A DNA stretch of 64,000 nt from positions 96,001 through 160,000 of IMG/VR virus record IMGVR_UViG_3300023274_000001; one strand, 5' to 3'. The notes under the pieces are model-generated. The model was not told the DNA's origin. It was given only the letters and a program-made list of their open reading frames with translations, and searched no databases. Source of the DNA: an uncultured virus (IMG/VR IMGVR_UViG_3300023274_000001) (taxonomy: Duplodnaviria; Heunggongvirae; Uroviricota; Caudoviricetes). The translations under genes and the position numbers were made by a program. Positions 1,336 through 19,088 of the stretch are shown here, piece by piece; position 1 is the stretch's first letter; every line of letters starts with the position of its first letter.

Positions 1336-1590
1336 ATGACTACTCCTACTGACTTCTCCGTCTGTCCCAGGTGCGGTGACGAGATCCCGCCGGACAATGA
1401 CGCGACCGGGGAAGGACCCGTGTACTGGACGATCTCCGAGGAACCGTTCTGCTCGATGGAATGCGTGATCTTCGTTCATCGCATGTGGCTGAAGCGGAAA
1501 GAAGGCCGGGCGGAGATGAGTGCGGCAGAAGTACTCGCAGCTCTGAAGGATCGCGCGGAACTGAACAAGCAGCAAGGACAAAACGGCTGA
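1336..1590 (+). CDS. small Cys-motif protein
   Basis: CPRC ... FCSMEC. Confidence 0.6.
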   Translation: MTTPTDFSVCPRCGDEIPPDNDATGEGPVYWTISEEPFCSMECVIFVHRMWLKRKEGRAEMSAAEVLAALKDRAELNKQQGQNG

Positions 1591-1599
1591 AGGCCAGAA

Positions 1600-2500
1600 T
1601 GCTCTGACGGATGCATGGTCCTAACCTGGGACCCAAATTCAAATTCAATTCCGCATTTGGTTTTCTACCGTGAGAGAATTTCGACTGAATTTCCCGCGAA
1701 TTTTCCCGCAGGTTTTCTCGCACCCGCTCCGCTCGCACTCCCGCTCACATTCCCTTGCATATCCATGTGCATTCATTGTGCATACGTGTGTGCATTGACG
1801 TGAGATATAGAGCTAGTGAATAGAGCGTAGATATCCCTGCATTAGCTAGCTGTTGATTCCCCTGCATTCCATCCCTTCCATTGCTGCGCATTCCCCCTGC
1901 ATTCCATCTGTTGCATTCCCCTGCACATTCCGAGTGTGTGTGATGAGAGACAGCAGATATCGAGACTCCGAATAGCCTCCCGCTTTCCCTCGCTTTCCCT
2001 TTCCTCTCACCTCCCGCTTTCCTCTCACTGCATAGGTTCATGTGTATGTGTGTATTGGGTGTGAGCAGTACAGACGTGAATGCGAAATAGCGATATCGAG
2101 ATACCCGCGCATTCCCTTTCCGAGTGCTCCCGCATTCCCCCTGAATTCCCGCGCGCTCCCGCTCCCGCTCACGTGCTCCCACCTGCACGCATACACACAT
2201 GATCATGCGCACCCTGCATACCGAGTGATCACCCGCTCACGTGCTCCCGCATTGCGTGCACTCCGGCACCGTGCGCCGTTCCCGCTCATGTGCTCCCGAG
2301 TGGCCAGGCAAGCGCGCTCACGCGCGAACGCGCATCGCGTCGCGCCCCCGCGCGCGCCGCTGCACGCGCGACCCCTCCGGCATGCTCCCGCTCCGTTCGC
2401 TCACATGTGTACTCACGTGCTCATCTGTGCTGATCAGTCCCCCTCGCTTCACATTCCCTCCCATCCCTCCCCTTCCCCTTCAAATCAGACATAGCTACAC
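1600..2500. repeat. non-coding C/T-skewed low-complexity block with many GCATTCC / GCTCCC units
   Basis: Lower GC than flanks, G-poor + strand, no credible ORF. Confidence 0.7.
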
Positions 2501-2874
2501 ACACTGACCCTGCAATGTGGGAGCGCAACGACGTGCATGCACTCCGGGAGTCCTCACGTTTCCGCAGCTCAGGAGCATGATCACAGCAAACTCCGACATA
2601 CGGGACAACGCTGTGACCTGCGGTTTCAACAGTTCGTTGTACCGGTTTCGAGCGCGAGAAAGTGGAGCCATCCTGCCCAAATAAGTAACTAAGAGTGGTC
2701 TTCCCTCACTTGCTTCTCACTCTATGTATATGCATTGCAGGTCGCAGCGCTGACGTGCGCGTACGTGTATGAACCGGACATGTGGGAGTTATGAGCACAC
2801 ATGCCGCTGCCTTCCTCACGCTCGAAACCCTCCCCTCCCTGCCTGTCTCGCGTAGCTATGTCCGAGTTTGTACA

Positions 2875-2890
2875 TGTGACCTGCGTCACA
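2875..2890. promoter_or_regulatory. perfect CRP/GlxR-type box TGTGA-N6-TCACA
   Basis: TGTGACCTGCGTCACA. Confidence 0.6.
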
Positions 2891-3119
2891 CTTTTATCGA
2901 TGCTTGCTACACCTACCGATTCGCTCCCTCGTTTGCTCACCGCAAATTCTTGACCCATCTGTCGTACATGTCCGTTTCGTGTCGTGAAGTCCGGTAGGTT
3001 CTCCATGCCTCTGACCTGCACAAACAGAAAGTCTCCCGACGTTTCCGCAGGTACAAGAGCTGACAGAACCTTTTTTGAGAAAAATCTTGAACTCCTCGTT
3101 TTCGCAGGTCAGAGCCCAT

Positions 3120-3135
3120 TGTGACCTGCGTCACA
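3120..3135. promoter_or_regulatory. second identical CRP-type box
   Basis: TGTGACCTGCGTCACA. Confidence 0.6.
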
Positions 3136-3409
3136 CACATTCGGTCCTGAAGTCCGGTAGCGCTCTGACCTGCACGTTTACTGTTCACCTGACACGTCGT
3201 CAGCAACCGCACACTTGCAATGGCAGCCATGTTTCTGGTCTAGTTCTGGTTGTCGCCACGACGCGGCGCCCGCTCCGGCGGGACGCGGCGCGGGGCGAGT
3301 GCAAGCGTCCGGGTTCTACCCCCGGACACACCCGCCCGGGTGTTCCTTCACATCACGTGAGGGGTGACCGGGAAGGGCTCACACGAACTCTGTGACGCAT
3401 GCGGTTCGC

Positions 3410-4235
3410 CGTAGCGACGTCGGGAGGGGAAACGGGAGGCACGATCCCCGGGTGAGGCGGACGGGAGCGAAACGCGCTAGCCGTAATGGCGCGGGATGCA
3501 CTCGAATGCGGTTCCTTGAGATTTTCGGAGCCCTCTCGTACACGATCCCCGGTAACCCGGGAGTACGGGAGCGGCGCAAACGGCAAGCCACGCGGTCCCC
3601 TAGGGGGCGCCGGAAAGCGTGGCCACTCGAACCGGTGGGAGGGGTCACCCTTTTGCCAGTCGGGAATACGGCGCACGGAGTACGTGACCACTTGCCGGAA
3701 TGCCTTACAGATCACAAGCGACGTGATCAGGGAATCCGGGAATGTCACAGGAAACGTGTTAAAGCGTTAGTCCGGTTCCCGCGAGTTGCGGCGCACGCAA
3801 GTACGGCCCTCTAGTCCGGGAGGTCAACCACAAGCCACGTGGGGAAACCGGGGGAATGGTGGGGAAAGCGTGTCGAAATAGTCAGTCCGCAGCAAAACCC
3901 GTTTCACCACTGGTTCGAGCCAAACGCACTATGCGGGTACGGCATAGATGATCACGCACTCTCCCGGGAGGGGTTCCGGGGGTGACGTGCGACGGTACGG
4001 CGGGATACCAGGGGTGTCGGAACCCCTGCCCGTGACGGACGGGAGCGCTTAGCGCTTCCGTCCCCCGGGGGATTCGGACGCGACACGTTGCGACGCGCCG
4101 GTTTCCACACGGAAATACGGGACGCGCTCCGATGTGGCGCCGTTTCCCCCGGGACGCATCACGTGCTGAGAGCACGAACGGACAACATGGTTTCGGTCCG
4201 GTAGGCAGGGAGGCTAGAACTCCCGTGACGCTACG
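3410..4235 (+). ncRNA. putative large structured RNA / early leader
   Basis: End-to-end pairing CGTAGCG/CGCTACG and CGGGAG/CTCCCG; many internal stems; no RBS-led ORF. Confidence 0.55.
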
Positions 4236-4292
4236 ACGGGGAAACTCTGTCCGTTCCTCCCTCCGCACGGAGGTTCGGGAAGGATTCCGGCA

Positions 4293-4472
4293 ATGGTGAT
4301 CAGGCTTGACAACGGCGGAACGGTGACGGTCTCGGAAAGCGGGATCACGTACCGTCGGGGGCGCGAGATTCAGTGGCGCCCCCTCCCCGGAACGTACAGC
4401 GAATCGGCCGAATGGCTGGACACGTTGGCGAACGGGAATGCGGGAGTTCTGTTCACGTCGCGTAAGGCGTGA
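4293..4472 (+). CDS. 59-aa hypothetical protein (absent from ORF track)
   Basis: GGGAAGGA RBS; MVIRLDNGGTVTVSESG... Confidence 0.65.
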   Translation: MVIRLDNGGTVTVSESGITYRRGREIQWRPLPGTYSESAEWLDTLANGNAGVLFTSRKA

Positions 4473-4531
4473 ACTGTCGGCAGACGTCGCACACGAGAGA
4501 TGCGACGCGGACAACGGAAAGCGGGAAGATC

Positions 4532-6334
4532 ATGAAGGTTGCGGGCAAGGTGTTGGCGGTTTCGGGCGACGGTTTCGCTCGGATGTACGGGCAGGGTGAA
4601 CGGGGCGCGGGACACGCGGTGTTCATTCCGGCCGGTTGTCAGGGTGACCCGTTGGGCGGGAGCGGCGCGCGAATCGTCCGGGCATGCGGGAGCACGCTCC
4701 CGACGGAAAAGGCGGCCGAGAAATTCCAGGGTGACAAGCGGTGCCCGAAGTGTGTCGAGTGGCTGGCCACGACGGACGGGACGGCTGCGCTCGAATCGGC
4801 CCGTGCGGAGCGTCACGCGTGGGAGTTCGGCGCCGATGACATCGCGGAACTGTTCAGCGTGGCGGACGTGGTGAACGGGACGGACGCCCGGGAGGACTCC
4901 GCCCCGGTTGCGGACATGGCCCCGGGTGCGGCGCGTGACGCTGCGGTGCGGGAGATCTGGACCGGCGGGAGCGACCCCGACCCGGTGGCCACGCGTAAGG
5001 CGGCGGTCGCTCGGGAGCGTAAGCGGCTGGCAGATCAGACGGAAAAGCGGGAGGCCGCTAAGCGGGAGGACTCCGCCCCGGTTGACCCCCCGGCGGACGG
5101 GAGCGGCGCGGAGATCATCGCGTCAACGGGTAAGACGCTCGCACAGATGGTCGCCGAAACGGCCACGTTCTACGCGAACGGCGGTGCGGTCTCCCCGGAG
5201 ATTGCGGCACTCCCGGCGCCCGGAACGGTGAGCCTGGCAAGCGGGACGGTTTCCGGGAGTGCGGCCGAAATTCTGGTCTGCACGTTCAAGGGTGAGGTTT
5301 CGACCGTCAACCCGGAGCGGACGCACGGGAAGTGCCCCGACTGCACCACGTACATTCCCCTTCTGCCCGGGGGCGCGGGAGGCAAGGAATCCGGCCCGAA
5401 GGTTTCCAAGATCAAGTGCGACGGGACCGGTTCGGCTCCGACGTCCGGGACCCTGGTTCTCCGCGACGATCACAGCGTGAGCGTGGCGGACGACTACGAC
5501 GGTAAGACGTCGGCCCCCTGCCCGGACTGCGGGCGCGTGATCGCGGTCTCTCGTGACCGGAACATGCGCAAGCACAACGGCTTGGAAGTGCGGGAGGTTG
5601 CCGAGTCGGCGGACGTCGACAAGATCGGCAAGCACAACGTGGGCGGGGTCGCGACTCCGGCCGGTAAGGGCCTGTCGTCCAAGTCGATTGAGACCGTGGA
5701 ACACGGGAGCGTGCCCGGTGACCCTGCCTCCGCTGACAAGCGGCGTGCGGCGGAGATCGAAGAGCGGGGCGCGGACGCGCGGGAGTTCAAGGGCGGTGCG
5801 GACGTCGGGGCGACGGTTGCCAAGGGTGCGCGACTGGCACTGTCCCGGGGTCACGGTTCGGTGGACGGGAGCGCGACGACCGGGAGTCAGAACATGGCGC
5901 CCGTGCAGCCCAAGGGGTGGGTAGGGGTCGCCGGTACGGGATCGCTTCCGGCCATGGTGCGCCCCGGGATTGACCCGGAAGTGACCGGGGACATCTGCCC
6001 CCTGCCGAAGTGCGGCGGACAGCGTAAGGACGTCGCACACAAGGGCAAGTCGTCGGGGTGGCGTCGGCGTCACTCCTCGCAGATCGGCGCCTATCTGGCC
6101 GGGCGCAAGGAAGAGCGGGACGCCAAGCGCGCGGCGCAGATCGAAAGCGGGGAGATCGTTCCCGCCTCGGTCAAGCGGGAGGCCCGTAAGGCGGCGTCGG
6201 TCGGATCGTTCAGTGAGGGCAACGTGAACGGGACCGTGACGCACGCGCCCCGCCCGGAGTTCGCCCCGAAGGGGACGCGCAAGCCTGCCCCGAACGGCAA
6301 CAAGCACACCCGCCGGAGCGGTCGCGCGGAGTAG
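4532..6334 (+). CDS. 600-aa low-complexity protein with several Cys pairs and basic tail
   Basis: RBS before MKVAG; CPKC, CPDC x2, CPLPKC; REDSAPV repeated. Confidence 0.8.
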   Translation: MKVAGKVLAVSGDGFARMYGQGERGAGHAVFIPAGCQGDPLGGSGARIVRACGSTLPTEKAAEKFQGDKRCPKCVEWLATTDGTAALESARAERHAWEFGADDIAELFSVADVVNGTDAREDSAPVADMAPGAARDAAVREIWTGGSDPDPVATRKAAVARERKRLADQTEKREAAKREDSAPVDPPADGSGAEIIASTGKTLAQMVAETATFYANGGAVSPEIAALPAPGTVSLASGTVSGSAAEILVCTFKGEVSTVNPERTHGKCPDCTTYIPLLPGGAGGKESGPKVSKIKCDGTGSAPTSGTLVLRDDHSVSVADDYDGKTSAPCPDCGRVIAVSRDRNMRKHNGLEVREVAESADVDKIGKHNVGGVATPAGKGLSSKSIETVEHGSVPGDPASADKRRAAEIEERGADAREFKGGADVGATVAKGARLALSRGHGSVDGSATTGSQNMAPVQPKGWVGVAGTGSLPAMVRPGIDPEVTGDICPLPKCGGQRKDVAHKGKSSGWRRRHSSQIGAYLAGRKEERDAKRAAQIESGEIVPASVKREARKAASVGSFSEGNVNGTVTHAPRPEFAPKGTRKPAPNGNKHTRRSGRAE

Positions 6335-6417
6335 TCCGCAGACGTCCGGAAGTCAAAGAGCGAAGCGGGCCCCGGGAACTCCCGGGGCCCGGGTGAATCG
6401 GAAAGGGAGTACGGGAC

Positions 6418-7086
6418 ATGAGCACGATCACGGTTGCGCAGGAAATCGAGGGCGCGCGGGAGCGCGTGACGCCGTTCTTCGAGGGGCTGCGGGAGGACAT
6501 GACGGCTCACTTCTGGGAGACGTTCGGCGCGGCGGCGGCGGCCTACCGGGGCGCGCGGTCGGAGGGTCCGGCGGCGGACCGGTTCGCGGGAGTGGTCGGC
6601 GAACTGATCCGGGACGCAAAGGGAACCGCGAGTGACCCCGTGCTGCGCCGTGGCGCCCCACTCCCGGCCGAGTACGGCGCCCCCGCGCGGGAGGCCCGGG
6701 AGGTCCCTCCCATGCCCTCACGTGAGCCGTGGGCGACCATGCCGACCGACGGGAGCGGAACGCTCACCCTGCCGGAGCGCATCACGTACGCGGTGATCGG
6801 CGCGGCGTGCGTGGCGGTCCTGCTGATCATCGGATTCCTGGTCTCGGGGGTCGGGAGTTCCCCCGACGCTCCGGCCGTGGACATGCGCAACGCGGGACAG
6901 GTGGTCACGGACGCCGACTTGATCACTCAGGGTGGCTACTGGTCATGGGAGGTCGCCGAGTCGTGCGGGATGCGCGTTCCGGCGGAGTGTGACAAGACGC
7001 TGCGGGAGGTCAACGCGGCGGCGGAGCGCTACGGCGTGCGGGTGTGGGAGGACGGAACGATCTCCCCCCTCGGACGTCAGTACTGA
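6418..7086 (+). CDS. membrane-anchored hypothetical protein
   Basis: RBS; one TM helix ITYAVIG...FLV. Confidence 0.8.
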   Translation: MSTITVAQEIEGARERVTPFFEGLREDMTAHFWETFGAAAAAYRGARSEGPAADRFAGVVGELIRDAKGTASDPVLRRGAPLPAEYGAPAREAREVPPMPSREPWATMPTDGSGTLTLPERITYAVIGAACVAVLLIIGFLVSGVGSSPDAPAVDMRNAGQVVTDADLITQGGYWSWEVAESCGMRVPAECDKTLREVNAAAERYGVRVWEDGTISPLGRQY

Positions 7087-7185
7087 TCACGGCCGTGCGG
7101 TCCGGTCGGGCTCCGGGTTTCCCGGGGTCCCGGCCGAATCGTCCGGGAGTGAGGGACGAGACGCGGAAAGGGAGAGGAAACGATC

Positions 7186-7584
7186 ATGGGTGCTGTCACG
7201 CTGGCCAAGCTGAGCGACGGAACGCGGGAGGACTTCCCGGGGGTCGGAATGAACTCCGGCGCGGGGGAACTCCAGTTCATCGGCGGAATGCCGACGCGCA
7301 AGATCGACGGTCCGCTGATCATGGTGGCCGGGATGCGCGTCAACCTGCCGGAGTCGGTCAAGGTCCCGGGTCCGCGCCGGGTGCGCGCGGTTGCCGTGGC
7401 CGTGGAGCGCGACGGGTTCCGGGACGCGGCCGAAACCGTGCCCAGCTACCGGGGCGTCGTGATCACGGCGGACGGTGACGAGTACCGGACGGGCCCGCGC
7501 GGTGAGATGGAGTACGTGCGCCGCGAGTGGCTGCGTCTGGCCGTGGAGTCGGGGACGTTCCGCCGTGTCGCCCGGATGAGCTAA
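7186..7584 (+). CDS. hypothetical protein
   Basis: Strong RBS, GC3 bias. Confidence 0.8.
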   Translation: MGAVTLAKLSDGTREDFPGVGMNSGAGELQFIGGMPTRKIDGPLIMVAGMRVNLPESVKVPGPRRVRAVAVAVERDGFRDAAETVPSYRGVVITADGDEYRTGPRGEMEYVRREWLRLAVESGTFRRVARMS

Positions 7585-7595
7585 CATCCGGGACG

Positions 7596-7607
7596 TGGCC
7601 TAGGTCA
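7596..7607. promoter_or_regulatory. CCTAGG palindromic box
   Basis: TGGCCTAGGTCA, intergenic. Confidence 0.65.
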
Positions 7608-7639
7608 GACAGGAACATCGGGAAGGGAGAAACGGGATC

Positions 7640-8023
7640 ATGCAGGAATCGATGACGCGCGGTGAGTGGTGGGACGAGTCGGCCCCGTACGGTGCGAACG
7701 GGTACACGTTCGGACGCGGTGAGCGGGTCACGGGCGCTCAGGTCGCGCGGGAGGTCACGTTCGACATGCAGCCGGGCGACCCGAACTGTGTGGCGCGGGG
7801 CGTGGCGGAGATGACCGACGGCCGCGTGTACATGTTCACGGTCGTGCGGGAGGACTTCGCCCGGAACTGCCCGGCGGACGGACGTAAGCGGCGGCGGTTC
7901 GCCTCCCTGTCGCGCCTGCCGTTCCGGGAGGCGGCATTCGACCTGATGGCATGGGAGATCGCCGGGCACCGTATCCGCCCGGCGGATGTCCCGGAGTACA
8001 CACGTCAGATTCACGCGCTCTGA
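7640..8023 (+). CDS. hypothetical protein
   Basis: Strong RBS. Confidence 0.8.
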   Translation: MQESMTRGEWWDESAPYGANGYTFGRGERVTGAQVAREVTFDMQPGDPNCVARGVAEMTDGRVYMFTVVREDFARNCPADGRKRRRFASLSRLPFREAAFDLMAWEIAGHRIRPADVPEYTRQIHAL

Positions 8024-8029
8024 CGTCGG

Positions 8030-8086
8030 GGAGACGCCCTAGGCGAACCGGTCCGGGAACGGACCGGGGCGCCGGGAGTGCCGCCC
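8030..8086 (+). repeat. intergenic bulged hairpin, family B
   Basis: GGAGACGCCCTAGG...CCGGGAGTGCCGC. Confidence 0.65.
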
Positions 8087-8147
8087 GGCACTGCGGGCCC
8101 GGTCACATCGGACCGGGGCCATTGGTTCGGAAAGAGAGAAGATCAAC

Positions 8148-8552
8148 ATGCGTGCAGCATTCGCGGGAATCCTCGCCGGTCTCGTCGCCCTGTTCTCGCT
8201 GAGCGGGAGCGCGGAAGCGGCCCCGTCGGTCAAGCGTCCGGCCGTCAAGTCGGTCTGCGAGACCGGGAGCCGGGGACAGAAGGCGTACGACGCGAAGTGC
8301 CTGAAGACCGGGACCGTGATGGACGGCGTGAACCTGTGGTTCCGCTACATCGACGGCGGCGCGGTGAGCAAGGCCGACCGCAAGGCGTTCTGCAAGGACG
8401 CGACCAGCACGGGCCACACCCGCGCCGGGATCATCGACGGCCTGTTCGATGTCGCGTACGACAACTACCGCAACCACACCCGCATGCTCTCGATCGCCGG
8501 GACCGTCGGCGTGTGGGACTGCCAGGCCCTCGGGGTCAAGATCAAGAAGTAG
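8148..8552 (+). CDS. secreted protein
   Basis: Signal peptide ending AEA; four Cys. Confidence 0.8.
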   Translation: MRAAFAGILAGLVALFSLSGSAEAAPSVKRPAVKSVCETGSRGQKAYDAKCLKTGTVMDGVNLWFRYIDGGAVSKADRKAFCKDATSTGHTRAGIIDGLFDVAYDNYRNHTRMLSIAGTVGVWDCQALGVKIKK

Positions 8553-8568
8553 TCCGGCCGGACCGGCG

Positions 8569-8605
8569 GACGGGAGCGCGCGGGAGGGGGGCCCGCGCGT
8601 TCCAG
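8569..8605 (+). repeat. intergenic hairpin, family A
   Basis: GACGGGAGCG...CGTTCCAG. Confidence 0.6.
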
Positions 8606-8644
8606 CCTGCTTGTCCAGCGGGAACCGAGGAGAGGGAGAAGATC

Positions 8645-8962
8645 ATGGCGAAACTTTCTGCGGCCGGACGGCTCGTGATGTTCCTGGTCGACAGTCCGCA
8701 CGCGCGCGTCAGCTACTCGCTGGGGGGCGGATTCAGTCCGTCGGTCATCGCGTCCATGGAGCGGGGGCACGGTACGAAGTCGAACCCGCGCGCTGACACG
8801 GTCCTGAAGCTGATCGACGTCGGCGTGCTGGAAGGGGCGGAGTTCGCGGATCTGAAGCTGACCGCGCGGGGCCGGACGATCCTGGCCGAACAGCAGGCGC
8901 TCGGGTGGGAGCTGGTCACCGGGACCGGCCACAAGCCGCGCATGCAGCAGAAGGGGAAGTGA
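8645..8962 (+). CDS. HTH-like protein
   Basis: FSPSVIASMERG...NPRADTVLKL resembles XRE helices. Confidence 0.6.
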   Translation: MAKLSAAGRLVMFLVDSPHARVSYSLGGGFSPSVIASMERGHGTKSNPRADTVLKLIDVGVLEGAEFADLKLTARGRTILAEQQALGWELVTGTGHKPRMQQKGK

Positions 8963-9048
8963 CCGGCTGACGGGAGCGCCCCGGGGGCAACTCCGGGGCG
9001 CTGACGCCAACTTGTCACGGACGGAACCGAGGAAAGGGAGAAACGGGA

Positions 9049-9585
9049 ATGATCAAGCCGTACGGAATCAAGGTCACCGCGTACCGGGAGGGTTCGGACT
9101 CCGGCATGTACCACGTGCGGGAGTTCGACGCGCCGGGACGTGCGGAAGCGGTCGCGGCCGTGCGTTCGTGGCTGCTGGTCGAGGGGTACGACGCCGACCA
9201 GTCCAAGATCGAAGTGGTGGCGGACGGGATGACCCTCGCCGACCACATGTCCCGGGAGCTGGTGAACCTGGGGGCCCGCATGTCCCTGCGTCACGGCGTG
9301 AGCATGGACGGCCCGCGCACGTGGGTGGACGGGAACGGCGAGAGGGGCGCGGCCGTCAAGCTATGGGCGGCGAACGGGCGCGGCGTGTCGGTCTCGTCGA
9401 AGCTGGACGAAAACGGGTTCATTCACTCGGAGTTCGCGGCGATCCGGGAGGACGCGGCCGACCGGCACGGGTGGGTGTTCGACGACGCGGCGCAGCACTA
9501 CCCGGAGCGCACGACAGTCGGGGACGGGTTCGACGGTGACGTGTCGGAGATGCTGACGCGCATCGTCGGCCTGCCCCGGAAGTAA
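9049..9585 (+). CDS. hypothetical protein
   Basis: Strong RBS. Confidence 0.8.
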   Translation: MIKPYGIKVTAYREGSDSGMYHVREFDAPGRAEAVAAVRSWLLVEGYDADQSKIEVVADGMTLADHMSRELVNLGARMSLRHGVSMDGPRTWVDGNGERGAAVKLWAANGRGVSVSSKLDENGFIHSEFAAIREDAADRHGWVFDDAAQHYPERTTVGDGFDGDVSEMLTRIVGLPRK

Positions 9586-9659
9586 CGAACGGGTCACGAT
9601 GTAGGCGGACGGGAGCGCCCGGGTCCTCCGGGCGTTCCAGCCGGTCTATGATCGGGCAA

Positions 9660-9671
9660 CGGCCTAGGCCG
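9660..9671. promoter_or_regulatory. CCTAGG palindromic box
   Basis: CGGCCTAGGCCG just downstream of TATGAT. Confidence 0.65.
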
Positions 9672-9698
9672 AACGGGAACGCGGAGAGGGAGAAGATC

Positions 9699-10046
9699 AT
9701 GGCTCAGAAGAAGCGGAACGCACCGTCGGGCAACGTCGCGTGGCGTGAGTTCATGAACGTCGTCACGGCGGGACGCGGCGGGGAGTACGGGCGCGTCCCG
9801 CGTGGCGGTCTCGCGGTCGGCGCGAACCCCACGGAAGAGCTGACGTGGCTTCCGGCGGAGTGGGACGCGGACGTGGAGCACGCTTCCCACGTCGTCTACC
9901 ACTACGGGACGCCGGTCGCGTGGATCGACGAGCGTAACGGCGGGTGGGTCGTGCCGGAGGTGAACTACACCCCGCAGACCAGCGGCGTACAGAACCGCAT
10001 CCGGGAGTACCTGGGCGCCGGGTTCCGCACCACGGTCAAGATCTGA
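9699..10046 (+). CDS. hypothetical protein
   Basis: RBS; VVYHYGTPVAW...YTPQTS. Confidence 0.8.
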   Translation: MAQKKRNAPSGNVAWREFMNVVTAGRGGEYGRVPRGGLAVGANPTEELTWLPAEWDADVEHASHVVYHYGTPVAWIDERNGGWVVPEVNYTPQTSGVQNRIREYLGAGFRTTVKI

Positions 10047-10135
10047 CGGACGGGCGCGCGGTCGCGTTCGGGAGCGCGCGGGGATCCGTCCCCGCTCGTT
10101 CCAGTGCACGACCGGACGACGGAAAGAGGGAAGAC

Positions 10136-10471
10136 ATGGCGACGTACGACTACCTGAAGCCCGGCGAGGCGCTGGCCAGGGCGCACGAGAGCGCGCGGGA
10201 CTTCGAGAAGATCATCGGGCTGCGCGGGATGGACGCCGACAACATCCGGCCCCGGATCGAGCGGACGCGGGCCGGGTACATGCACCCGCCCGTCGACACG
10301 TGGCGCGCATACGGGAGCCGCGACAAGATGCGGGAGATCGTCAAGGTCGAGAGGACGACCGGCGACGCGGACCCCGGGACGATTACGGTCACGTTCAAGA
10401 ACGACGACGGCACGGAAGAGTCGACGTACCTGCACAGGTTCGATCTGCTCTGTGTCGAACGCCCCATCTGA
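10136..10471 (+). CDS. hypothetical protein
   Basis: RBS before MATYDY. Confidence 0.8.
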   Translation: MATYDYLKPGEALARAHESARDFEKIIGLRGMDADNIRPRIERTRAGYMHPPVDTWRAYGSRDKMREIVKVERTTGDADPGTITVTFKNDDGTEESTYLHRFDLLCVERPI

Positions 10472-10545
10472 CGCGGTCGCGTTCGGGAGTGCCGGAGGGG
10501 GACCGGCATTCCAGTGCATGACCGACGGAAGGGAGAAACGGAAGC

Positions 10546-10983
10546 ATGGACACGACGCGACAGAGGATCGACGACATCGCGCGGGGTTCGCTGATTCAGA
10601 CGGCGGGCGGGTTCGTGATCGCCGACCTGGACGGCTGGACCCCCGGGAGCGGTGACGGGCGGGTCGAGCCGCAACAGTTCCTGTATGACACGGACGGGCG
10701 GCGCCACTTCCCGAACGCGGACGGGGTCCTGATCACCGGGATCGCCACGTTCCGCACGCAGGAGTACGGCAAGGTGCCCGGGAAGAACACGCAGGGTCAC
10801 GCGCTGCTCAACCTGGTACCGGGTCAGCCTCCGGCCGGTCTCTGCCCGGCGTCCCGGAACCTGGGCAATGCTCTGTCGGTCTGGTCGTCGGGGACGGCGC
10901 TCACGGGTGTCACGTGCCGGGCGTGCCGGAAGATGATCGGCCTGGTCAACACGGGTGCGCCCCGGCAGAGCAACGGAATCTGA
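10546..10983 (+). CDS. hypothetical protein with C-terminal H/C zinc motif
   Basis: H...LC...VTCRAC. Confidence 0.8.
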   Translation: MDTTRQRIDDIARGSLIQTAGGFVIADLDGWTPGSGDGRVEPQQFLYDTDGRRHFPNADGVLITGIATFRTQEYGKVPGKNTQGHALLNLVPGQPPAGLCPASRNLGNALSVWSSGTALTGVTCRACRKMIGLVNTGAPRQSNGI

Positions 10984-10985
10984 TC

Positions 10986-11258
10986 ATGGACGAGTTCGCC
11001 TACTACTCCCCCGGCGCGAAAGCCGGGACGCTCCACATGCGGGAGCTGACGGACGACGTATTGCGCACGATCGCCCGGGACCGGGACCACGTGACCCCGG
11101 AGTTCCGGGAGGTCTACGCGTTCATGGAGACGGTCAAGGACGGCGACCGCCCGACGAACGCCGATTGGGTCACCGGGAGGGCGATCGACGAACTGTTCGA
11201 CCGGGGCCGGATCGACGGGGAGCGGTACGACCACATGCGACGGGAGGCGGGGCTGTGA
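10986..11258 (+). CDS. hypothetical protein
   Basis: Tightly packed ORF. Confidence 0.7.
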   Translation: MDEFAYYSPGAKAGTLHMRELTDDVLRTIARDRDHVTPEFREVYAFMETVKDGDRPTNADWVTGRAIDELFDRGRIDGERYDHMRREAGL

Positions 11259-11536
11259 AGCTGATCGCCGTTGACCCGTGGGACTGCGGGTGCACGGAGT
11301 GCATCACGGGCGAGTACGTGCCCCTGCGGTACGCCACGGATGAGCAGGTCGCCGACCTGATCGCGGGGAGGCTGCGCAACAACCTGAACTCCGGTACCCA
11401 ACTGGAGATCCGCACCACGTACGCGACGGAGGGCGGGAAGCTGGTGTTCCACGACGTCACCGTGACGTACGAGCACCACGACGGACAGACGCGGGAGTGG
11501 TCGCCGGACCCGTACCGGATGGGTCTCGCCGCGTAG
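11255..11536 (+). CDS. hypothetical protein (CGCTEC)
   Basis: GTGA overlap. Confidence 0.75.
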   Translation: MKLIAVDPWDCGCTECITGEYVPLRYATDEQVADLIAGRLRNNLNSGTQLEIRTTYATEGGKLVFHDVTVTYEHHDGQTREWSPDPYRMGLAA

Positions 11537-11599
11537 TAACGCACGGAAGTGATGGACGGATGCGGGGCCCACACGGGCCCGGCCGGAAGGGAGAACACG

Positions 11600-12223
11600 A
11601 TGGGTCGCACGGTCGAGGAGTTTCACGGTCTGCTGGCTGACCTGCTGAGCAACACGCGCCGGAAGCATGACGGGCGCCCCGGTCCGGGACAGCCCGGTTA
11701 CCTGAGTGACGAGTCGGCCGACGCGGTGACCATGTGGCGGCACATGGCGCACATGGCGCACTCGTACGCGAACGGGGCCGACGTGCGCGGGATCCGGCCG
11801 ACAGGGTCGGACCTGTGGGAGGACGGCATGGACCGGGGGAAGTTCCTGGCCCTGATCACCGAGCGGTCCCGCATCCTGCGCGCGGTGAAGCGCGGGGGCG
11901 ACATGGACACGATGCTCGTGGACGACTCCGTGCGGTACTGGGAGTTCACCCTGGCCCTGTCCACGGTCACGAACGACGAACACGCCGAGTCGGCCCGGCA
12001 GAACGGGAACCGGGAGGCCGCGCGCCGGATCATGCTGGAAACGGAGATCGACCTGGCCCTGATCCGGGCGTACACGGACGTCGACATCGCGACCCTGCGC
12101 CGCACGCTGCGGGAGTGCGAGGGTGAGCGCCCCGTGTCGCCGGGCCGGAACGGTGACGGCTCCCGCAAGTGGGAGCCGCACCCGCTGTTCGACCTGATCA
12201 CGGCCAACCGGCCGACGGTCTGA
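11600..12223 (+). CDS. hypothetical protein
   Basis: Strong RBS. Confidence 0.8.
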   Translation: MGRTVEEFHGLLADLLSNTRRKHDGRPGPGQPGYLSDESADAVTMWRHMAHMAHSYANGADVRGIRPTGSDLWEDGMDRGKFLALITERSRILRAVKRGGDMDTMLVDDSVRYWEFTLALSTVTNDEHAESARQNGNREAARRIMLETEIDLALIRAYTDVDIATLRRTLRECEGERPVSPGRNGDGSRKWEPHPLFDLITANRPTV

Positions 12224-12309
12224 AGCTACGGAGCGCCGCTGTTCGGGCGGGCGCGGGATTGCGGTCCCGCATCCGTCCGTGTGGTGACGGTTCGACGGAA
12301 GGGGAAGAG

Positions 12310-12603
12310 ATGCGAGCGACGACGACGGACCGAGTGGCTGTGTTCATCCAGCCGGGGGACGAGATCGTGAACAGTCGGGCGGAGGTGCACGACGTGTTCA
12401 AGGTGCTGCACTCCGGCTACGGGTTCGCGGGAGTGCTGCTGACGCAGCGCCCGACGGAGACCGGCAAGGGGATGCGGTACGCGCTGTGGATCGTCACCCC
12501 GGAGGGGGACGTGCGGGCCACGATGACGACGGACGACTTCCCGGCAGTGACGGGCGCGTTCATGGCGCGTGCGAACGACATGGTCCGGGAGGGCGCACGG
12601 TGA
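12310..12603 (+). CDS. hypothetical protein
   Basis: RBS. Confidence 0.75.
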   Translation: MRATTTDRVAVFIQPGDEIVNSRAEVHDVFKVLHSGYGFAGVLLTQRPTETGKGMRYALWIVTPEGDVRATMTTDDFPAVTGAFMARANDMVREGAR

Positions 12604-13058
12604 AGCACACGTACGTGTACCGGCTCCCGAAGGGGAAGCGGTGGCTGTGGACGGCGGGACGTGCGGGCGCGGCCGACCTGTTCCTGTCCCCCGAGACGGG
12701 TGACGGGACGGATCCGGACTGGCAGGGGTACATCGGTCTGTCGAATCACCTCGGTCACATGGAAGAGCTGTTCCGCAAGGCGATCGAGGACGAGCCGCGC
12801 GTGTGCATCGGCAAGCACTACATGATCCCGGGGTCGCTCTGTGAGGTCTCGCAGGAACGGGAAAGCCTGGCCAGTGAGACGGTCCGGCTGGTCACCCTGT
12901 GGACATGGGATGCGCCCGTACTGGAAGGGACCACACTGTCCCGGCTGCGCATGACCCTGAACCGGCCGACGGACGCGGAGGGGATGAGCAGCCGGGCCGA
13001 GCGGATGGCATTCCTGGCGGAGAACGAGGGGCACCGGATCGTACCGGTGTGGATGTGA
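12600..13058 (+). CDS. hypothetical protein
   Basis: GTGA overlap. Confidence 0.75.
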   Translation: MKHTYVYRLPKGKRWLWTAGRAGAADLFLSPETGDGTDPDWQGYIGLSNHLGHMEELFRKAIEDEPRVCIGKHYMIPGSLCEVSQERESLASETVRLVTLWTWDAPVLEGTTLSRLRMTLNRPTDAEGMSSRAERMAFLAENEGHRIVPVWM

Positions 13059-13143
13059 CGGAGCGCAGTGCTTCGGGCCTGCACGGGAGTGATTCCGTGC
13101 GGGTCCGTGGTGCCGGGCGGTCCGGCCGGAAGGGAGATTGATC

Positions 13144-13635
13144 ATGGGTAAGACGCTGGACGAGTTGCTGCACGGGCCGAGCGCGCTCCCCGTGCTGGTC
13201 AAGGCCGACGGGACGTTCGAGACGGCGGCGTACCCGCCCCCGACCCTCGCCGAGTACGCGCCGGAGTCGATCGACGTCGACTATGAGGGCTCGTTCGAGG
13301 ACGGGCAGATTCTCGACCACCACGAGCGGGACGCGATCAGCTCCGTCGAGAACGGATGGACCGTGCTCACGGGATGGTCGGCGGACCCGTCCCTGTTCAT
13401 CATGCGCAACGACCAGTACATCGGCGGAGCCCTGGCCGAGCACATCGCCGAGACGCCGGGCCTGTGGGCGGTCGTCTCCGTCGAGATGCACCCGCACGCG
13501 TGCGGCGCCGGGAAGGACGGGATGCCGTGCCCGGAGTGGGACGAGCACGAGACGTGCGAGCACGCCGAGGGGGGCGAGTCGGACGGAGTCGGGTGGGCGC
13601 TGGTTCACCGGGAGCCGCAGGACGACAACGCCTGA
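13144..13635 (+). CDS. acidic hypothetical protein
   Basis: RBS; D/E-rich. Confidence 0.8.
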   Translation: MGKTLDELLHGPSALPVLVKADGTFETAAYPPPTLAEYAPESIDVDYEGSFEDGQILDHHERDAISSVENGWTVLTGWSADPSLFIMRNDQYIGGALAEHIAETPGLWAVVSVEMHPHACGAGKDGMPCPEWDEHETCEHAEGGESDGVGWALVHREPQDDNA

Positions 13636-13651
13636 CGGGAAGGGAACGGAA

Positions 13652-14281
13652 GTGCTGTACGCGATCTACGTTCCGACCGCCCGCACCCCGACGTCCGGTC
13701 TGGAAGTCGAGCGCCTGCCCTCACGGGAGCAGGCGGGGCGGTGCCTGCTGGAACGGAACCTGTTGGGTGCCGGGCGAACCTGGTTCCTGGGAGACGAGCC
13801 GTCCCGGTACGGAGCGCACCGGCCGGTGAGGGAGTGGGCCGACGCGGACGAGACCGGTTACATGCGGGTCTTCCTGCGCAAGGCCACGGAGCCGGTTCCC
13901 CGGCCGCTGGACACGCCTCATGAGGAGTGGCTGGTCAACCCGGGAGGCAAGCGCGGGGTCGTGGTCCGGCTCCCGTGGGAGGCGGCCGACGGCGAAGTGG
14001 TGCGACTGCTCAAGGACGGGTTGCGGGTACTGCCGTCCGGTACGGTTCCGGCCCCGGCGCCCCGCAGCCGGACGATTGTGGCGCATGCGCCGCTGGTCGT
14101 GGCGCCCCGGCCGGTCTGCGGGAGTTGCTTTCAGGTCAAGCACCCTACGGCCGGGTGTGGTTGCCCGGATACGGGCGCGGCCCTGGTGATGGAGATGCAG
14201 CGGCCGACCCGGGATGGATGGGAGGAGTGCCCGGGGTGCGGCAAGGCGGTATCCGCGTACGCGCGGTGTGGTTGTTCGTGA
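13652..14281 (+). CDS. hypothetical protein with Cys-rich C-terminus
   Basis: RBS; CGSC, CGC, CPGC. Confidence 0.75.
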   Translation: MLYAIYVPTARTPTSGLEVERLPSREQAGRCLLERNLLGAGRTWFLGDEPSRYGAHRPVREWADADETGYMRVFLRKATEPVPRPLDTPHEEWLVNPGGKRGVVVRLPWEAADGEVVRLLKDGLRVLPSGTVPAPAPRSRTIVAHAPLVVAPRPVCGSCFQVKHPTAGCGCPDTGAALVMEMQRPTRDGWEECPGCGKAVSAYARCGCS

Positions 14282-14306
14282 TCGAGTCAGGCAGGGAGAG
14301 GAACGG

Positions 14307-14573
14307 ATGAGCAGCGGAGACGGACCCCGGGAGATCGTCGTTCGGCACAAGCAGAACGTCTTGCGCGGGGTGCCGACGATGGGCGTCGGTGCGCAGGACA
14401 AGCAGACGGGGGCGCACATCTGGCTCCCGTCCCCGATCAGGGACGGTGACCGGTTCACGGAGGGCCGGGAGGCGGCGGAGGTCGTGGCCCGGAAGCTGCT
14501 GCCGGACGGCGCGCGGCTGCTGTGGAGCCGGGACACCCCGGAGACGTACGTCTTCACGGTGGCGGGTGCATGA
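14307..14573 (+). CDS. hypothetical protein
   Basis: RBS. Confidence 0.7.
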   Translation: MSSGDGPREIVVRHKQNVLRGVPTMGVGAQDKQTGAHIWLPSPIRDGDRFTEGREAAEVVARKLLPDGARLLWSRDTPETYVFTVAGA

Positions 14574-14680
14574 TCTTCGGTCTCGTGTTCGTCCTGTACT
14601 TCGGGTGCGGCCTGACCTGCATGGGCCTGCGGTACCTGTGGGCGGGATTGCGCAAGATCAGAGACGGCAACGCCGGGTGA
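14570..14680 (+). CDS. 36-aa membrane peptide
   Basis: ATGA overlap; MIFGLVFVLYFGCGLTC. Confidence 0.6.
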   Translation: MIFGLVFVLYFGCGLTCMGLRYLWAGLRKIRDGNAG

Positions 14681-14788
14681 TCTGAGGCATTCGGGAGGAT
14701 TCGGGACCGGGTTCGGTCCGGTTCCGAGTCTTCCAGTGTGTTCCTGATCGGTCGAATGGTCATGAACCGGACGGAAAGGATGTAAACG

Positions 14789-15187
14789 GTGAAAGCTGAG
14801 CGAATGAAGTTCACGGGGGCGTTCGTCGAGGAGGTGGCGGCCCGGGTCGAGAAGATCACGGGCGGCATGTTCAAGCTGGGGCCGGTCGGCTCGCACCCGG
14901 AGCACGGGACGTCGTACGCCGACGCCCGGGATGACCGGGTGTGGTACGGACCGCAGGGAGCCCGGCAGGCGTGCGCGTTCTACACGGCCGCCGCGATGCG
15001 GTACCTGCACCTGATGGGCATCGAGCCCGACGGGGACGACGGCGAGTTCTTGCTGGCCGTGCAGGTGGCGTACTCCCGCTACGGGGCGACCGCCCGGGAG
15101 CGCGTCGACTACCACGAGTGGGAGATGCGCGGCGGCGACCGGGCGCAGGAACTGATCAACGCCGCCGAGGGCGACGCGCGCAACTGA
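14789..15187 (+). CDS. hypothetical protein
   Basis: RBS. Confidence 0.8.
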   Translation: MKAERMKFTGAFVEEVAARVEKITGGMFKLGPVGSHPEHGTSYADARDDRVWYGPQGARQACAFYTAAAMRYLHLMGIEPDGDDGEFLLAVQVAYSRYGATARERVDYHEWEMRGGDRAQELINAAEGDARN

Positions 15188-15220
15188 CCAGCGGTACACG
15201 ACGGAAGGGAAGAACGGGAC

Positions 15221-15736
15221 ATGACGAACCTGATCACGCTGGAGAACGGCAACCAGGTCGAGCCGGGATGCTGGTTCGACGGGGCGCACGGGTGGACGAA
15301 CTCGTACCGGGTCGTCGACCTGGCCGTGCATCACGGGATGGAGCTGGACGCCGAGGACGCGGCGGTCGTCGAGTGGTACCGCAACTCCGGGGACTCCGAC
15401 GCGGACGCCTCGGACGACGAGCTGAGCAAGCTGGAAGCGATGACCGGTCAGGGCGGCCTCTCCGACAAGGCGACGGACTACCTGATGGAGCAGCTTCCCG
15501 AGGGCTGGACGCTGCGCTGGGACGACGGCCTGACCTGTCTGCGGGACTGGGAGGACTGCGCGGCCGACGGCAACGGGTGCGAGGTCGACGTGGACACGGC
15601 CGGGAACATCGTGCTGGTCAAGCGGTGTGCCGACCACAACCCCTGTGAGGGTCACGTCGACACGGACGACGCGCTGACCTCCGGCGCGGGCATCGGGGAG
15701 GCCGTCTACTGCGACGGGTCGTGCGTCAAGCGCTGA
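15221..15736 (+). CDS. very acidic hypothetical protein
   Basis: RBS; D/E-rich, Cys tail. Confidence 0.8.
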   Translation: MTNLITLENGNQVEPGCWFDGAHGWTNSYRVVDLAVHHGMELDAEDAAVVEWYRNSGDSDADASDDELSKLEAMTGQGGLSDKATDYLMEQLPEGWTLRWDDGLTCLRDWEDCAADGNGCEVDVDTAGNIVLVKRCADHNPCEGHVDTDDALTSGAGIGEAVYCDGSCVKR

Positions 15737-15809
15737 CCATCCGCGCACTTCGGGCGGGCATCCGGGAGACCGGGTGCCCCACCGTGGACCACGGAAGGGA
15801 GATCGGGAA

Positions 15810-16343
15810 GTGACCGACATTCAGATCAAGGACAAGGACGCGTATCCGCTGAGCCTGTGGCGTGAAGCGCTGGAGGTGGCGGAGGTGGCGGAGTTCTGCC
15901 CCACCGACACCCGGGAGCACAACGGCGGGGAGCTGGGGGCGCTCGGGGCGTGGCTGTGTGACGAGCTGTACGGGAAGCCGGTCAACCCGGACAACGCCCG
16001 GGAGGACAAGGGCGAGATCGTCACGGAGCAGATCATCGATGGCGCGCTGGCCGTGCTCGACCAGGAGGACCGGGAAATCGTCACCCCGGCCGACCTGCGC
16101 AAGGTGATCGAGTCGTATCGGGGCGAGACCTTCGACGATTTCGAAGAGCTGGCCCGGGACTACGCCGAGGCCGACTACATCGGCCCGGACGACGAGAACC
16201 CGGCGCTCGCGGAGTGGGAGGGATTCAACTCCCCGGAGGACTTCGAGCGCTGGTACACCCGGTACGCCACGGGCGAGGGTGAGGTCTGCGGGGAGATCCG
16301 CGAGGGCGGGACCCTGATCTGGTTCGACAGGTTCAAGTGGTGA
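15810..16343 (+). CDS. ArdA-like acidic antirestriction/DNA-mimic protein
   Basis: YRGETFDDFEELARDY motif, very acidic. Confidence 0.6.
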   Translation: MTDIQIKDKDAYPLSLWREALEVAEVAEFCPTDTREHNGGELGALGAWLCDELYGKPVNPDNAREDKGEIVTEQIIDGALAVLDQEDREIVTPADLRKVIESYRGETFDDFEELARDYAEADYIGPDDENPALAEWEGFNSPEDFERWYTRYATGEGEVCGEIREGGTLIWFDRFKW

Positions 16344-16352
16344 GGTGACGAG

Positions 16353-16625
16353 ATGCACGGATCGTACGACGACATGATGGACTGGAAGTACCGGGAGGAG
16401 AACGGCGGGCGGGAGCGGGAGATCGCCTACATGCCGAACTACACGAACCCGGAACTCCCGGACTACGTCGCTCCCGAGGATCGTGACCCGGAGCTGGAAA
16501 AGGAGATGCACGAGATCTACGCCCGGGACAACGCCGGGCGCGTCGCGCGCAATCACCGGGCCGAGGTCGCCGGTCTGCGGGCGCTGCTCGAAGAGAACGG
16601 GATCGAGATCCCGGACCACCTGTGA
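16353..16625 (+). CDS. hypothetical protein
   Basis: GAGG RBS. Confidence 0.75.
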   Translation: MHGSYDDMMDWKYREENGGREREIAYMPNYTNPELPDYVAPEDRDPELEKEMHEIYARDNAGRVARNHRAEVAGLRALLEENGIEIPDHL

Positions 16626-16715
16626 TCACCGCGTGATTCAGGGGCGCACGGGAGGGGGCTCGTGCGCGCCTGTGTCCCACGGTGGGACCTGATGGACGGA
16701 CGGAAAGGAAGAAAC

Positions 16716-17845: not shown

Positions 17846-17862
17846 CGGAAAGAGGGAAGAGC

Positions 17863-18138
17863 ATGACCGGAAGCACCAGATATCCGGCGACGTCGTACGA
17901 CAAGCTGAACGAGGAATGGGAGGTACGGGCGGAGCCGATCACGCAGCTCCGCATCGCCTCGGAACTGGCCCCGTGCGTGAGCGCCGGGATGACCGTGCGC
18001 GGCGGCCCGCTGCGGGCGCAGCTCCCCGACGGTTCGTCCGGACGGGAGATCGGCGCTGTGTCGATCGTGTGGAGTCAGACCGAGCAGGACGACGGCAGTC
18101 GTACGGTGCTCGGGTGGTACGAGTCCGGGCGGAACTGA
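17863..18138 (+). CDS. hypothetical protein
   Basis: RBS. Confidence 0.75.
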   Translation: MTGSTRYPATSYDKLNEEWEVRAEPITQLRIASELAPCVSAGMTVRGGPLRAQLPDGSSGREIGAVSIVWSQTEQDDGSRTVLGWYESGRN

Positions 18139-18169
18139 CGTCCGGGTGGCGGCCCGTGCAGGGTGCCGC

Positions 18170-18621: not shown

Positions 18622-18634
18622 CGGGAGCGGTTCG

Positions 18635-19087: not shown

Positions 19088-19088
19088 C

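Follow-up and report, generated by a model that had tools for sequence, protein, structure and literature searches.

Does the gene-free stretch at the head of the presumed early genes of a large Streptomyces phage encode a functional RNA and, if so, what might that RNA do? The locus lies in a 64,000-nucleotide stretch of DNA from an uncultured virus (hereafter the window), bases 96001-160000 of the 188.7-kb viral record IMGVR_UViG_3300023274_000001. Judged from its sequence, the source is a Streptomyces jumbo phage of the Frankenweenie/Kela/Satis group. The original prediction had placed at 3410-4235 an RNA of ~830 nt with many stems, the ends of which pair with each other. What we find is a row of over 20 conserved hairpins and small domains, ~1.1 kb long, that extends from ~3195 to the start codon of the first gene of the block, and it is not one molecule with paired ends. 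We are highly confident that it is a genuine structured RNA. As to its function we lean, tentatively and with somewhat less than even confidence, towards a non-coding leader that would load host Nus factors and so make transcription of the early block resistant to terminators.

Twelve homologs of the RNA were compared: the window itself, cultured phages (L001, L002, L010 and L009), contigs from IMG/VR (L004-L008) and contigs from metagenomes (L190 and L261). The IMG/VR contigs were found through the adjacent 600-aa protein, and the metagenome contigs through a pattern taken from the core of the RNA, with confirmation by nhmmer. The 12 sequences represent roughly six lineages with pairwise identities of 48-100% across the RNA, and alignments of the variable parts are unreliable. 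The RNAalifold consensus of all 12 contains 194 pairs, 59 of which have at least one sequence changed on both sides. The alignment that gave this consensus structure is also the one on which it was counted, which biases the counts in its favour, though the margin over the controls is large: 96.0% of 2,215 cells are paired, compared with 88.1% in 500 column shuffles (none of which reached the observed value) and 39-47% when partners were displaced by 1-3 columns (slid control). Likewise, 60 of the 194 pairs are changed on both sides, versus 34.6 ± 3.0 in the 500 shuffles (0/500) and 10-16 in the slid control, and the covariation score is 0.269 versus 0.138 and 0.044-0.063, respectively.

Folding energies were compared with those of 20 dinucleotide shuffles per stretch. 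On the + strand, 3410-4235 has a minimum free energy (MFE) of -396.4 kcal/mol versus -348.5 ± 6.2 for its shuffles (z = -7.74, 0/20 as good), and the 944-nt counterpart in Satis reaches -431.5 versus -401.41 ± 7.1 (z = -4.24, 0/20). The - strand of 3410-4235 gives -351 versus -321.85 ± 7.83 (z = -3.72, 0/20), and a coding control, 5000-5825, gives -404.2 versus -395.74 ± 7.85 (z = -1.08, 3/20). Covariation and folding relative to shuffled sequence had both been named as checks when the RNA was first proposed, and both came out in its favour. G-U pairs make up 8.8% of the paired cells in the core and 11.0% in the whole RNA, and each would be an A-C mismatch on the opposite strand. Because of these G-U pairs and the weaker fold of the - strand, we conclude that the RNA and the downstream genes share one reading direction.

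The best-conserved 146 nt of the RNA, its core, was modeled separately. A covariance model (R1), built from four hand-written hairpins, finds the core in all 12 homologs with scores of 132-175 bits. When these hits were realigned, in an alignment that is thus fitted to the model, pairing holds in 99.6% of 479 cells, and both sides have changed in 19 of 44 pairs, versus 1-5 when slid; at least 12 separate compensatory events can be counted by eye. Hairpin P1, for example, occurs as CTATG/CATAG, CCATG/CATGG, CCGCG/CGCGG and GAATG/CATTC, and the base of P4 as GGACGG/CCGTCC, GCACGG/CCGTGC, GTGCGG/CCGCAC and ACACGG/CTCGTGT. Over 3920-4060 the identity to Satis is 87.5%, compared with 41.7% for the adjacent 600-aa protein; by this comparison the core is under stronger constraint than the neighboring gene.

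The extent and architecture of the RNA differ from what had been proposed. All nine complementary word pairs listed in the original prediction are found in the DNA at the coordinates given there, two of them (3533/3563 and 4037/4052) with one G-U each, and seven of the nine stems are upheld by the relatives. Compensatory changes are seen in the stems 3538-3541/3563-3566, 3710/3723, 3929/3942, 4009/4022, 4037/4052 and 4064/4145; for 3587/3617 the support comes from comparison with L261 by eye. The two closing stems, 3410/4229 and 3421/4220, are not conserved. Nucleotides 3410-3419 pair in a local hairpin with 3393-3403, in which five of the nine pairs are changed on both sides, and from alignments inspected by eye their far complement occurs only in the nearest relatives of the window, not in L005, L190 or the Kela group. 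Nor do the limits 3410-4235 hold, since conservation and covarying helices span ~3195 to the start codon at 4293. An unbiased scan for long-range covarying helices returned only local hairpins together with three to four weak pairs that are likely spurious. Every lineage has the 5' part and the 3' core, the centre (3584-3917) comes in two mutually unalignable versions, and Satis and L008 lack 3300-3377 and 4186-4270. Since modules have been swapped or lost between lineages, a string of hairpins suits the RNA better than one rigid fold.

The claim that the region is free of genes stood. No gene is annotated there, and over 1600-4290 the difference in GC content between the highest and lowest codon phase is mostly ≤0.15, compared with 0.17-0.33 in the gene from 4540. 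Exceptions in the gap are 0.18-0.23 at ~3640-3700 and 0.20 at ~2980; in the patch around the former (~3640-3760) the order of the phases is wrong for either of the overlapping open reading frames (ORFs). Unannotated small protein genes, or the chance folding of G+C-rich DNA, are a very improbable explanation of the locus. ORFs of 140 aa (3392-3814), 94 aa (3486-3770) and 210 aa (3882-4514, - strand) are open, the last in several lineages (aligned up to 188 aa). However, the third-position phase of each is not the G+C-richest as in real genes here, ORFs in the RNA region have no Pfam match, and other lineages have unrelated sequence in place of the central segment that carries two of these ORFs. 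The 210-aa ORF runs antisense to the 3' part of the RNA and to the first gene; since its third-codon phase is the G+C-poorest, it is unlikely to be a real gene. A comparison of ORFs and peptides in six frames was set aside as a coding test, since all frames of nucleotide-conserved DNA look alike and similarity appeared in every frame, which does not single out a coding one. Chance folding is excluded by the compensatory pair changes and the shuffle controls.

The RNA matches no catalogued RNA family. Rfam 15 gave no match in the 64-kb window at gathering thresholds (including GOLLD, ROOL, OLE, HEARO, RNase P, tmRNA, 6S, group I/II introns and rRNA), and at E ≤ 10 only five weak, unrelated small families appeared in 2600-4600, with 15.8-19.7 bits versus thresholds of 42.5-70. 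What remains of the original prediction is thus a large, conserved, structured, non-coding RNA without an Rfam match, and what falls is the ~830-nt molecule closed by its ends. A literature search at listing level found no description of this RNA.

A processive antitermination leader had been offered as one alternative, and a block that had not been noticed at the time now lends it support. The word GTTCCTTGAGA (3511-3521) is identical to the first 11 nt of a 20-mer, GTTCCTTGAGAACTCAACAG, of the Streptomyces rRNA leader; ahead of one Streptomyces 16S gene, the leader sequence contains CGTTCCTTGAGAACTCAACAG. This 20-mer lies 191 nt before 16S in one Streptomyces genome and 163-182 nt before it in another. 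Of 61 Streptomyces genomes searched, 59 contain it, the complete ones in several copies each, and the reversed control has 0 matches. In the RNA the boxA-like block is present in 12/12 homologs, and U3507, C3509, G3510, G3511, U3513, C3514, U3516, U3517 and G3518 are invariant in 10/10 sequences. Lineage variants GCTCTTTGAGA, GATCTTTGAGA and GATCCTTGAAA are close to the boxA consensus of E. coli (UGCUCUUUAACA) and B. subtilis (AUGAUCUUUGAAA) as given in PMC13753749. Among 5,000 dinucleotide shuffles of the RNA, four shared an 11-nt word with the host 20-mer. The block stands ahead of 112 same-strand genes and ~300 nt past the onset of conservation. BoxA is described as recruiting NusB-S10 and nucleating the rRNA antitermination complex (PMC4807359, PMC10250234), and as protecting long untranslated 5' regions from Rho (PMC4807359). 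In the host leader that we inspected (L401 1537-1778, minus strand), a second boxA-like word, GGTTCCTTTGAAGAAC, occurs ~70 nt after the first, and the first can pair with an upstream AAGGAA.

For a stretch that is conserved at the RNA level on the + strand, lacks a coding signal and carries this invariant match to the host, the reading we favor is as follows. The RNA (~3195-4292) would be transcribed on the + strand from promoters in the motif-rich region upstream and would form the untranslated head of an early transcription unit (112 genes in Frankenweenie). About 300 nt into the transcript, the RNA with its more than 20 hairpins would expose a boxA-like word copied from the host rRNA leader. 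While the RNA is being made, host NusB-S10 would bind this word and, together with NusA and NusG, convert host RNA polymerase to the terminator- and Rho-resistant form normally kept for rRNA. The modified polymerase would first protect the long, untranslated, G-rich and folded leader, and read-through would then carry transcription across the ~47-kb early block. The ~750-nt folded body after boxA may also be released by processing as a stable RNA. The use of the host enzyme fits the lack of a detected phage RNA polymerase, a weak negative: PF00562 was not found in the phage (control positive in 14/14 genomes), and the blank for PF00940 means little since its control was positive nowhere. Because the RNA carries a recognizable handle, the copy of the host rRNA-leader boxA, the mechanism can be tested directly.

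Several observations weigh against this antitermination leader. The boxA match was found post hoc, and the host 20-mer is taken to be the functional boxA of Streptomyces on the strength of its location and its resemblance to published consensus sequences. The degenerate pattern GNTCYTTGARA occurs once in the 188.7-kb phage genome, at the boxA-like block, and its reversed control also occurs once; the argument is therefore carried by position and conservation, not by the count. BoxA is bound in single-stranded form, and the word lies partly in a predicted local hairpin (3510-3515/3527-3532). The first 20 kb contain no more terminator-like sites than chance predicts (7 versus 6.9 expected), so a need for antitermination is not demonstrated. 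A simple scan for sigma-70-type promoters found 0 in 1500-4700 and 0 in 4293-24000, and neither a promoter nor a 5' end was found. No RNA dataset is listed as containing the stretch; four sequencing runs presumed to be RNA (X16-X19) yielded short low-depth contigs only, two of them (X16 and X18) are probably DNA, and these runs therefore give no information about transcription. Finally, boxA requires only ~12 bases; because it leaves a ~1-kb covarying fold unexplained, a second function is likely, and boxA would equally serve a free-standing long non-coding RNA.

Such a free-standing RNA, of a new class and akin to GOLLD and ROOL, is possible, and we consider it less probable than the leader. 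It would be made early, be excised from the early transcript and act in trans on a target in the host or the phage, or form a particle, with boxA only ensuring its completion. Its putative cut sites would be the rod-like domain at 4161-4270 or a helix between 3507-3532 and 4272-4292. The size and number of covarying helices far exceed the needs of a cis-acting antitermination signal, the 146-nt core is better conserved than the neighboring protein, and the loops and joining strands AGCCGTAA, GTGTCGGAAC and AACGCAC are invariant; GOLLD and ROOL, as reported in bioRxiv 10.1101/2024.12.08.627333, are phage-borne, 600-800+ nt long and expressed during lysis. On the other hand, no terminator lies between the RNA and the first gene (by scan, and by eye for 4236-4292), the long-range helices that one compact fold would call for are weakly supported, whole modules (3584-3917; 3300-3377 and 4186-4270) are swapped or missing between lineages, and tRNA genes are absent from the 64 kb, as is any Rfam match. 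A replication origin, with the transcript serving as primer of DNA synthesis or opening an R-loop and with the GACCTGC repeats as initiator sites, is improbable. An iteron-like cluster does lie directly upstream, where 5 of the 51 genome copies of GACCTGC and 2 of the 36 of GCAGGTC fall within 700 bp, in 2600-3195; the local GC skew changes sign at ~3150-3300, and the G-rich transcript strand (skew of +0.06 to +0.13) favors RNA-DNA hybrids. Non-coding RNAs required for replication are also described in actinophages (PMC7157519). However, the cumulative GC skew of the whole genome is lowest at another place, ~4 kb into the record, with only a local dip at 96-102 kb that coincides with the gene-free gap. 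A primer RNA also needs neither a boxA identical to that of rRNA nor a ribosome-binding site and gene at its 3' end, and the examples described in PMC7157519 are ~400-500 bp (from deletions) and lie beside parABS, which was not seen here.

Two further explanations turn on pairing between the boxA-like block and the ribosome-binding region of the first gene, which at present is a hypothesis only. One RNAalifold run paired 3507-3517 with 4280-4292 (10 pairs, 96% paired, one pair changed on both sides and four on one side) and 3525-3532 with 4272-4279; UUCCUU in the block and AAGGA in the ribosome-binding site are complementary, and by eye L008, Satis and Kela retain the helix with different bases. 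However, an alternative fold takes the local hairpin over this helix. Duplexes of the boxA segment with the 26 nt before the ATG have predicted energies of -7.4 to -25.1 kcal/mol, compared with -20.9 to -33.9 for the best windows, so that this segment is the best partner in 0/12 homologs. A local realignment of 3378-3575 gave a poorer structure than the full alignment, with 26 pairs of which six are changed on both sides. The RNA might be a look-alike of pre-rRNA, in which boxA and the ~750-nt body enclosed by a leader-trailer-like helix that includes the ribosome-binding site would capture the host antitermination/RNA-chaperone complex; this complex would fold the RNA, and a double-strand RNase would free both a trans-acting RNA and the early mRNA. 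In pre-16S rRNA, boxA is described beside a leader-trailer helix cut by RNase III (PMC10250234). We consider such a look-alike unlikely, though less so than an origin; if true, it would be among the largest phage non-coding RNAs, with a separate role in trans in host takeover. The same helix could instead make the RNA a translational or stability leader of the first gene, in which 3507-3532 hides or exposes the ribosome-binding site at 4275-4282, or the RNA shields the 5' end of the mRNA. This is slightly less probable even than an origin, since the segment is never the best partner by energy, the local hairpin is preferred and a kilobase is disproportionate for the control of a 59-aa gene.

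The coordinates of the RNA, its parts and its neighbors are collected in the following table.

Features of the gene-free region, the structured RNA and the first genes of the early block (window coordinates)
Feature	Position	Strand	Basis and remarks
Direct terminal repeat, ~1 kb, gene-free	1624..2661	.	matches to Frankenweenie bases 1-2533 and to the Kela/JustBecause record ends
Upstream control region	2600..3195	+	invariant short words with variable spacers (11 aligned relatives)
Structured non-coding RNA, whole, ~1.1 kb (890-1,149 nt in relatives)	~3195..4292	+	RNAalifold consensus and covariation; 5' end predicted
Invariant GCAATGGCAGCCAT with near-palindrome ATGGCAGCCAT	3217..3230	+	invariant in 10/10 and 12/12 sequences
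G+C-rich 17-bp hairpin, nearly invariant	3254..3297	+	93% paired; 16/17 pairs never vary
Two hairpins, 3307-3327 and 3331-3377	3307..3377	+	2/7 and 4/17 pairs changed on both sides; missing from Satis and L008
Tetraloop hairpin; loop TTCG, CTTG, GCAA or GAAA by lineage	3393..3419	+	5/9 pairs changed on both sides, 94% paired; 5/10 as helix 9 of the full alignment
Hairpin domain with invariant unpaired word AGCCGTAA (3479-3486), just 5' of the boxA-like block	3462..3504	+	alignment; 3462-3465/3501-3504 with 2/4 pairs changed on both sides
BoxA-like block TGCGGTTCCTTGAGATTTTCGGAGCC	3507..3532	+	nine invariant positions in relatives
Hairpin (CTCTCGTAC/GTACGGGAG)	3533..3571	+	3538-3541/3563-3566: 4/4 pairs changed on both sides, 100% pair
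Variable central domain, two non-aligning versions with their own hairpins	3584..3917	+	BLAST alignments break at 3583/3918
Most conserved core: P1 3929-3947, P2 3955-3991, P3 4000-4033, P4 4037-4063	3921..4066	+	covariance model R1
Domain closed by 4064-4072/4145-4153 (CCCGGGGGA/TCCCCCGGG), with inner hairpins	4064..4153	+	covariation; helices 31-35 with 3/4, 2/3, 1/3, 3/4 and 3/3 pairs changed on both sides
Rod-like 3' domain, ~31 stacked pairs, before the first ribosome-binding site	4161..4270	+	alifold: 4161-4172/4260-4270, 4176-4184/4248-4256, 4190-4200/4237-4245, 4204-4206/4230-4232; absent in Satis and L008
Ribosome-binding region GGGAAGGA and first early-block gene (59 aa, 4293-4472)	4272..4472	+	gp366 in Frankenweenie; ORF kept in all lineages
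Second early-block gene, 600 aa	4532-6334	+	gp365 in Frankenweenie

Of the parts listed, GCAATGGCAGCCAT marks the start of the conservation common to all lineages and could be a protein-binding site or part of a promoter, and the rod-like domain may be a processing site. The first version of the centre is found in the window, L004, Frankenweenie and L261, and the second in L005, L190, the Kela group and Satis; helix 3882-3891/3897-3906 forms 9/9 pairs in the second and 5/9 in the first. The Kela group (L002, L010, L006 and L007) has a 42-nt insertion right after hairpin P4 (equivalent of 4063), and L261 has an extra small hairpin of ~12 nt in the apical loop of P2; in both cases the flanking helices are kept. 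Set against 3462-4250 of the window, L005 and L190 each prove to be mosaics that join 5', central and 3' modules from different versions, and the switches fall where one domain meets the next. The long-range helix predicted between 3655-3665 and 4128-4138 forms 6/10 pairs in L005 and 9-10/10 elsewhere, except in L261 (8/10), Satis and L008; its disruption in L005 means either that the helix is not real or that this metagenome contig is chimeric.

The region upstream of the RNA (2600-3195) has a different character, with no covariation seen. It contains the palindrome TGTGACCTGCGTCACA and the words GAAGTCCGGTAG and CTCTGACCTGCAC twice each, with GAAGTCCGGTAG found nowhere else in the genome, and an arm at 3104-3115 with alternative partners at 3009-3025 or 3162-3173. 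These words look like candidate sites for DNA-binding proteins, which would make them promoters or operators, origin iterons or packaging signals. Within 2682-2730, the words TAAGT.ACTAAGAGT and CTTCT.AC.CT.TGTATA are invariant in all lineages including Satis and L008.

The closest cultured relatives of the source are Streptomyces phages of 184-200 kb: Frankenweenie (~92% identity here), Kela, JustBecause and the Satis/Kradal/Quantum/EhyElimayoE group. The + strand of the window corresponds to the minus strand of the cultured-phage records. From matches to the record ends of Frankenweenie, Kela and JustBecause, the physical genome ends lie at ~1624 and ~2661, and each end of the Frankenweenie record carries a repeat of 1,038 bp, the two copies being 100% identical. 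Within the terminal repeat, ~2100-2550 has a G+C content of 66-70%, and on its + strand C is in strong excess over G (GC skew of ~-0.3). The gene-free gap measures ~2.7 kb (1590-4292), from the last left-end gene, at ~1590, to gp366, and nothing is annotated in it in the Frankenweenie, Kela, JustBecause or Satis records. The genes flanking the gap on both sides share one direction. From gp366 down to gp255 of Frankenweenie, an unbroken run of 112 genes on one strand covers 46.6 kb, and nearly all of these genes lack an assigned function; because they follow the gap, the structured RNA stands at the head of an apparent early block near the genome end. The 600-aa protein is a fast-diverging orphan with several paired-cysteine motifs (41.7-83.9% identity among relatives) and has no Pfam, PHROG or PDB relative. 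Searches of Pfam, PHROGs and PDB with the neighboring proteins likewise gave nothing informative.

R1 finds a single true copy in the phage genome and no match in sets of 2 and 151 genomes of the genus Streptomyces (20 candidates scored per genome in the 151), and BLAST of the RNA against four Streptomyces genomes returned only short matches to the G+C-rich hairpin. A 25-nt degenerate core pattern matched 13 stretches in viral sequences, of which nhmmer accepts five (L132, L134, L138, L139 and L141), all from the L004-L008 contigs. In metagenomes it matched at least 119 stretches, with two true homologs by nhmmer among the matches listed (L190 and L261), and in bacterial genomes at least 120 stretches, with 0 homologs among the matches listed. 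As a search pattern in viral contigs GCAATGGCAGCCAT was too unspecific (at least 119 stretches, chance matches except for known relatives). A tRNA-like or tmRNA element was dropped, since ARAGORN found neither tRNA nor tmRNA genes in the 64 kb, as was mimicry of rRNA beyond boxA, with no match to small-subunit (SSU) or large-subunit (LSU) rRNA at E ≤ 10. A CsrA-type sponge, suggested by many GGGA/GGAG words, was considered and dropped, as CsrA is not known from Streptomyces.

To our knowledge, structured RNAs of ~1 kb are very rare outside rRNA. The few examples from phages, GOLLD and ROOL, are still without a known function. The RNA described here stands at a defined site, the very start of presumed early transcription in cultured Streptomyces phages that have laboratory hosts, and for annotation it means that the seemingly empty 2.7-kb end of these genomes holds content. 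If the antitermination reading is true, it would be a Nus-factor antitermination leader in an actinophage that borrows the rRNA machinery without the nut architecture of the lambda N type, and structural study would gain a new large RNA family.

Among known systems, the rRNA operon (rrn) leader and lambda nut share with the phage RNA a short boxA-type word, which in the phage would lie on the nascent transcript near the start of a long transcription unit. As in pre-rRNA, this word precedes a long, highly folded, untranslated RNA, and the possible helix between the side of boxA and the sequence after the body resembles the leader-trailer helix described in PMC10250234. Unlike in these systems, no counterpart of boxB or boxC and no N-like protein was recognized; the body of the phage RNA does not resemble rRNA and is followed by protein genes, its leader-trailer-like helix is not singled out by energy, and Nus binding is predicted only. 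GOLLD and ROOL, as described in bioRxiv 10.1101/2024.12.08.627333, are likewise phage-borne, several hundred to ~1,000 nt long and rich in covarying helices, with no known function. The phage RNA differs in matching neither Rfam model, in lacking neighboring tRNA genes, in lying directly before a gene block without a terminator, and in having variable modules and firm support for local helices only. The RNA-based origins, ColE1 RNA II and those of non-RepA cluster A mycobacteriophages (PMC7157519), resemble it by description in that a structured transcript, in an actinophage in the latter case, lies in a gene-free region with repeated DNA words. Compared with the phage RNA they are shorter; they are neighbors of parABS in temperate phages and point away from the adjacent genes, whereas the phage RNA leads into early genes in a large phage whose genome has terminal repeats. 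The put sites of HK022 are small two-hairpin RNAs that act in cis and bring about antitermination without host factors. They resemble what we propose here, an RNA just after the early promoters that gives read-through over a long early operon, and differ from it in that the phage RNA is ~1.1 kb long and carries a host-type boxA, which points to a route through Nus factors.

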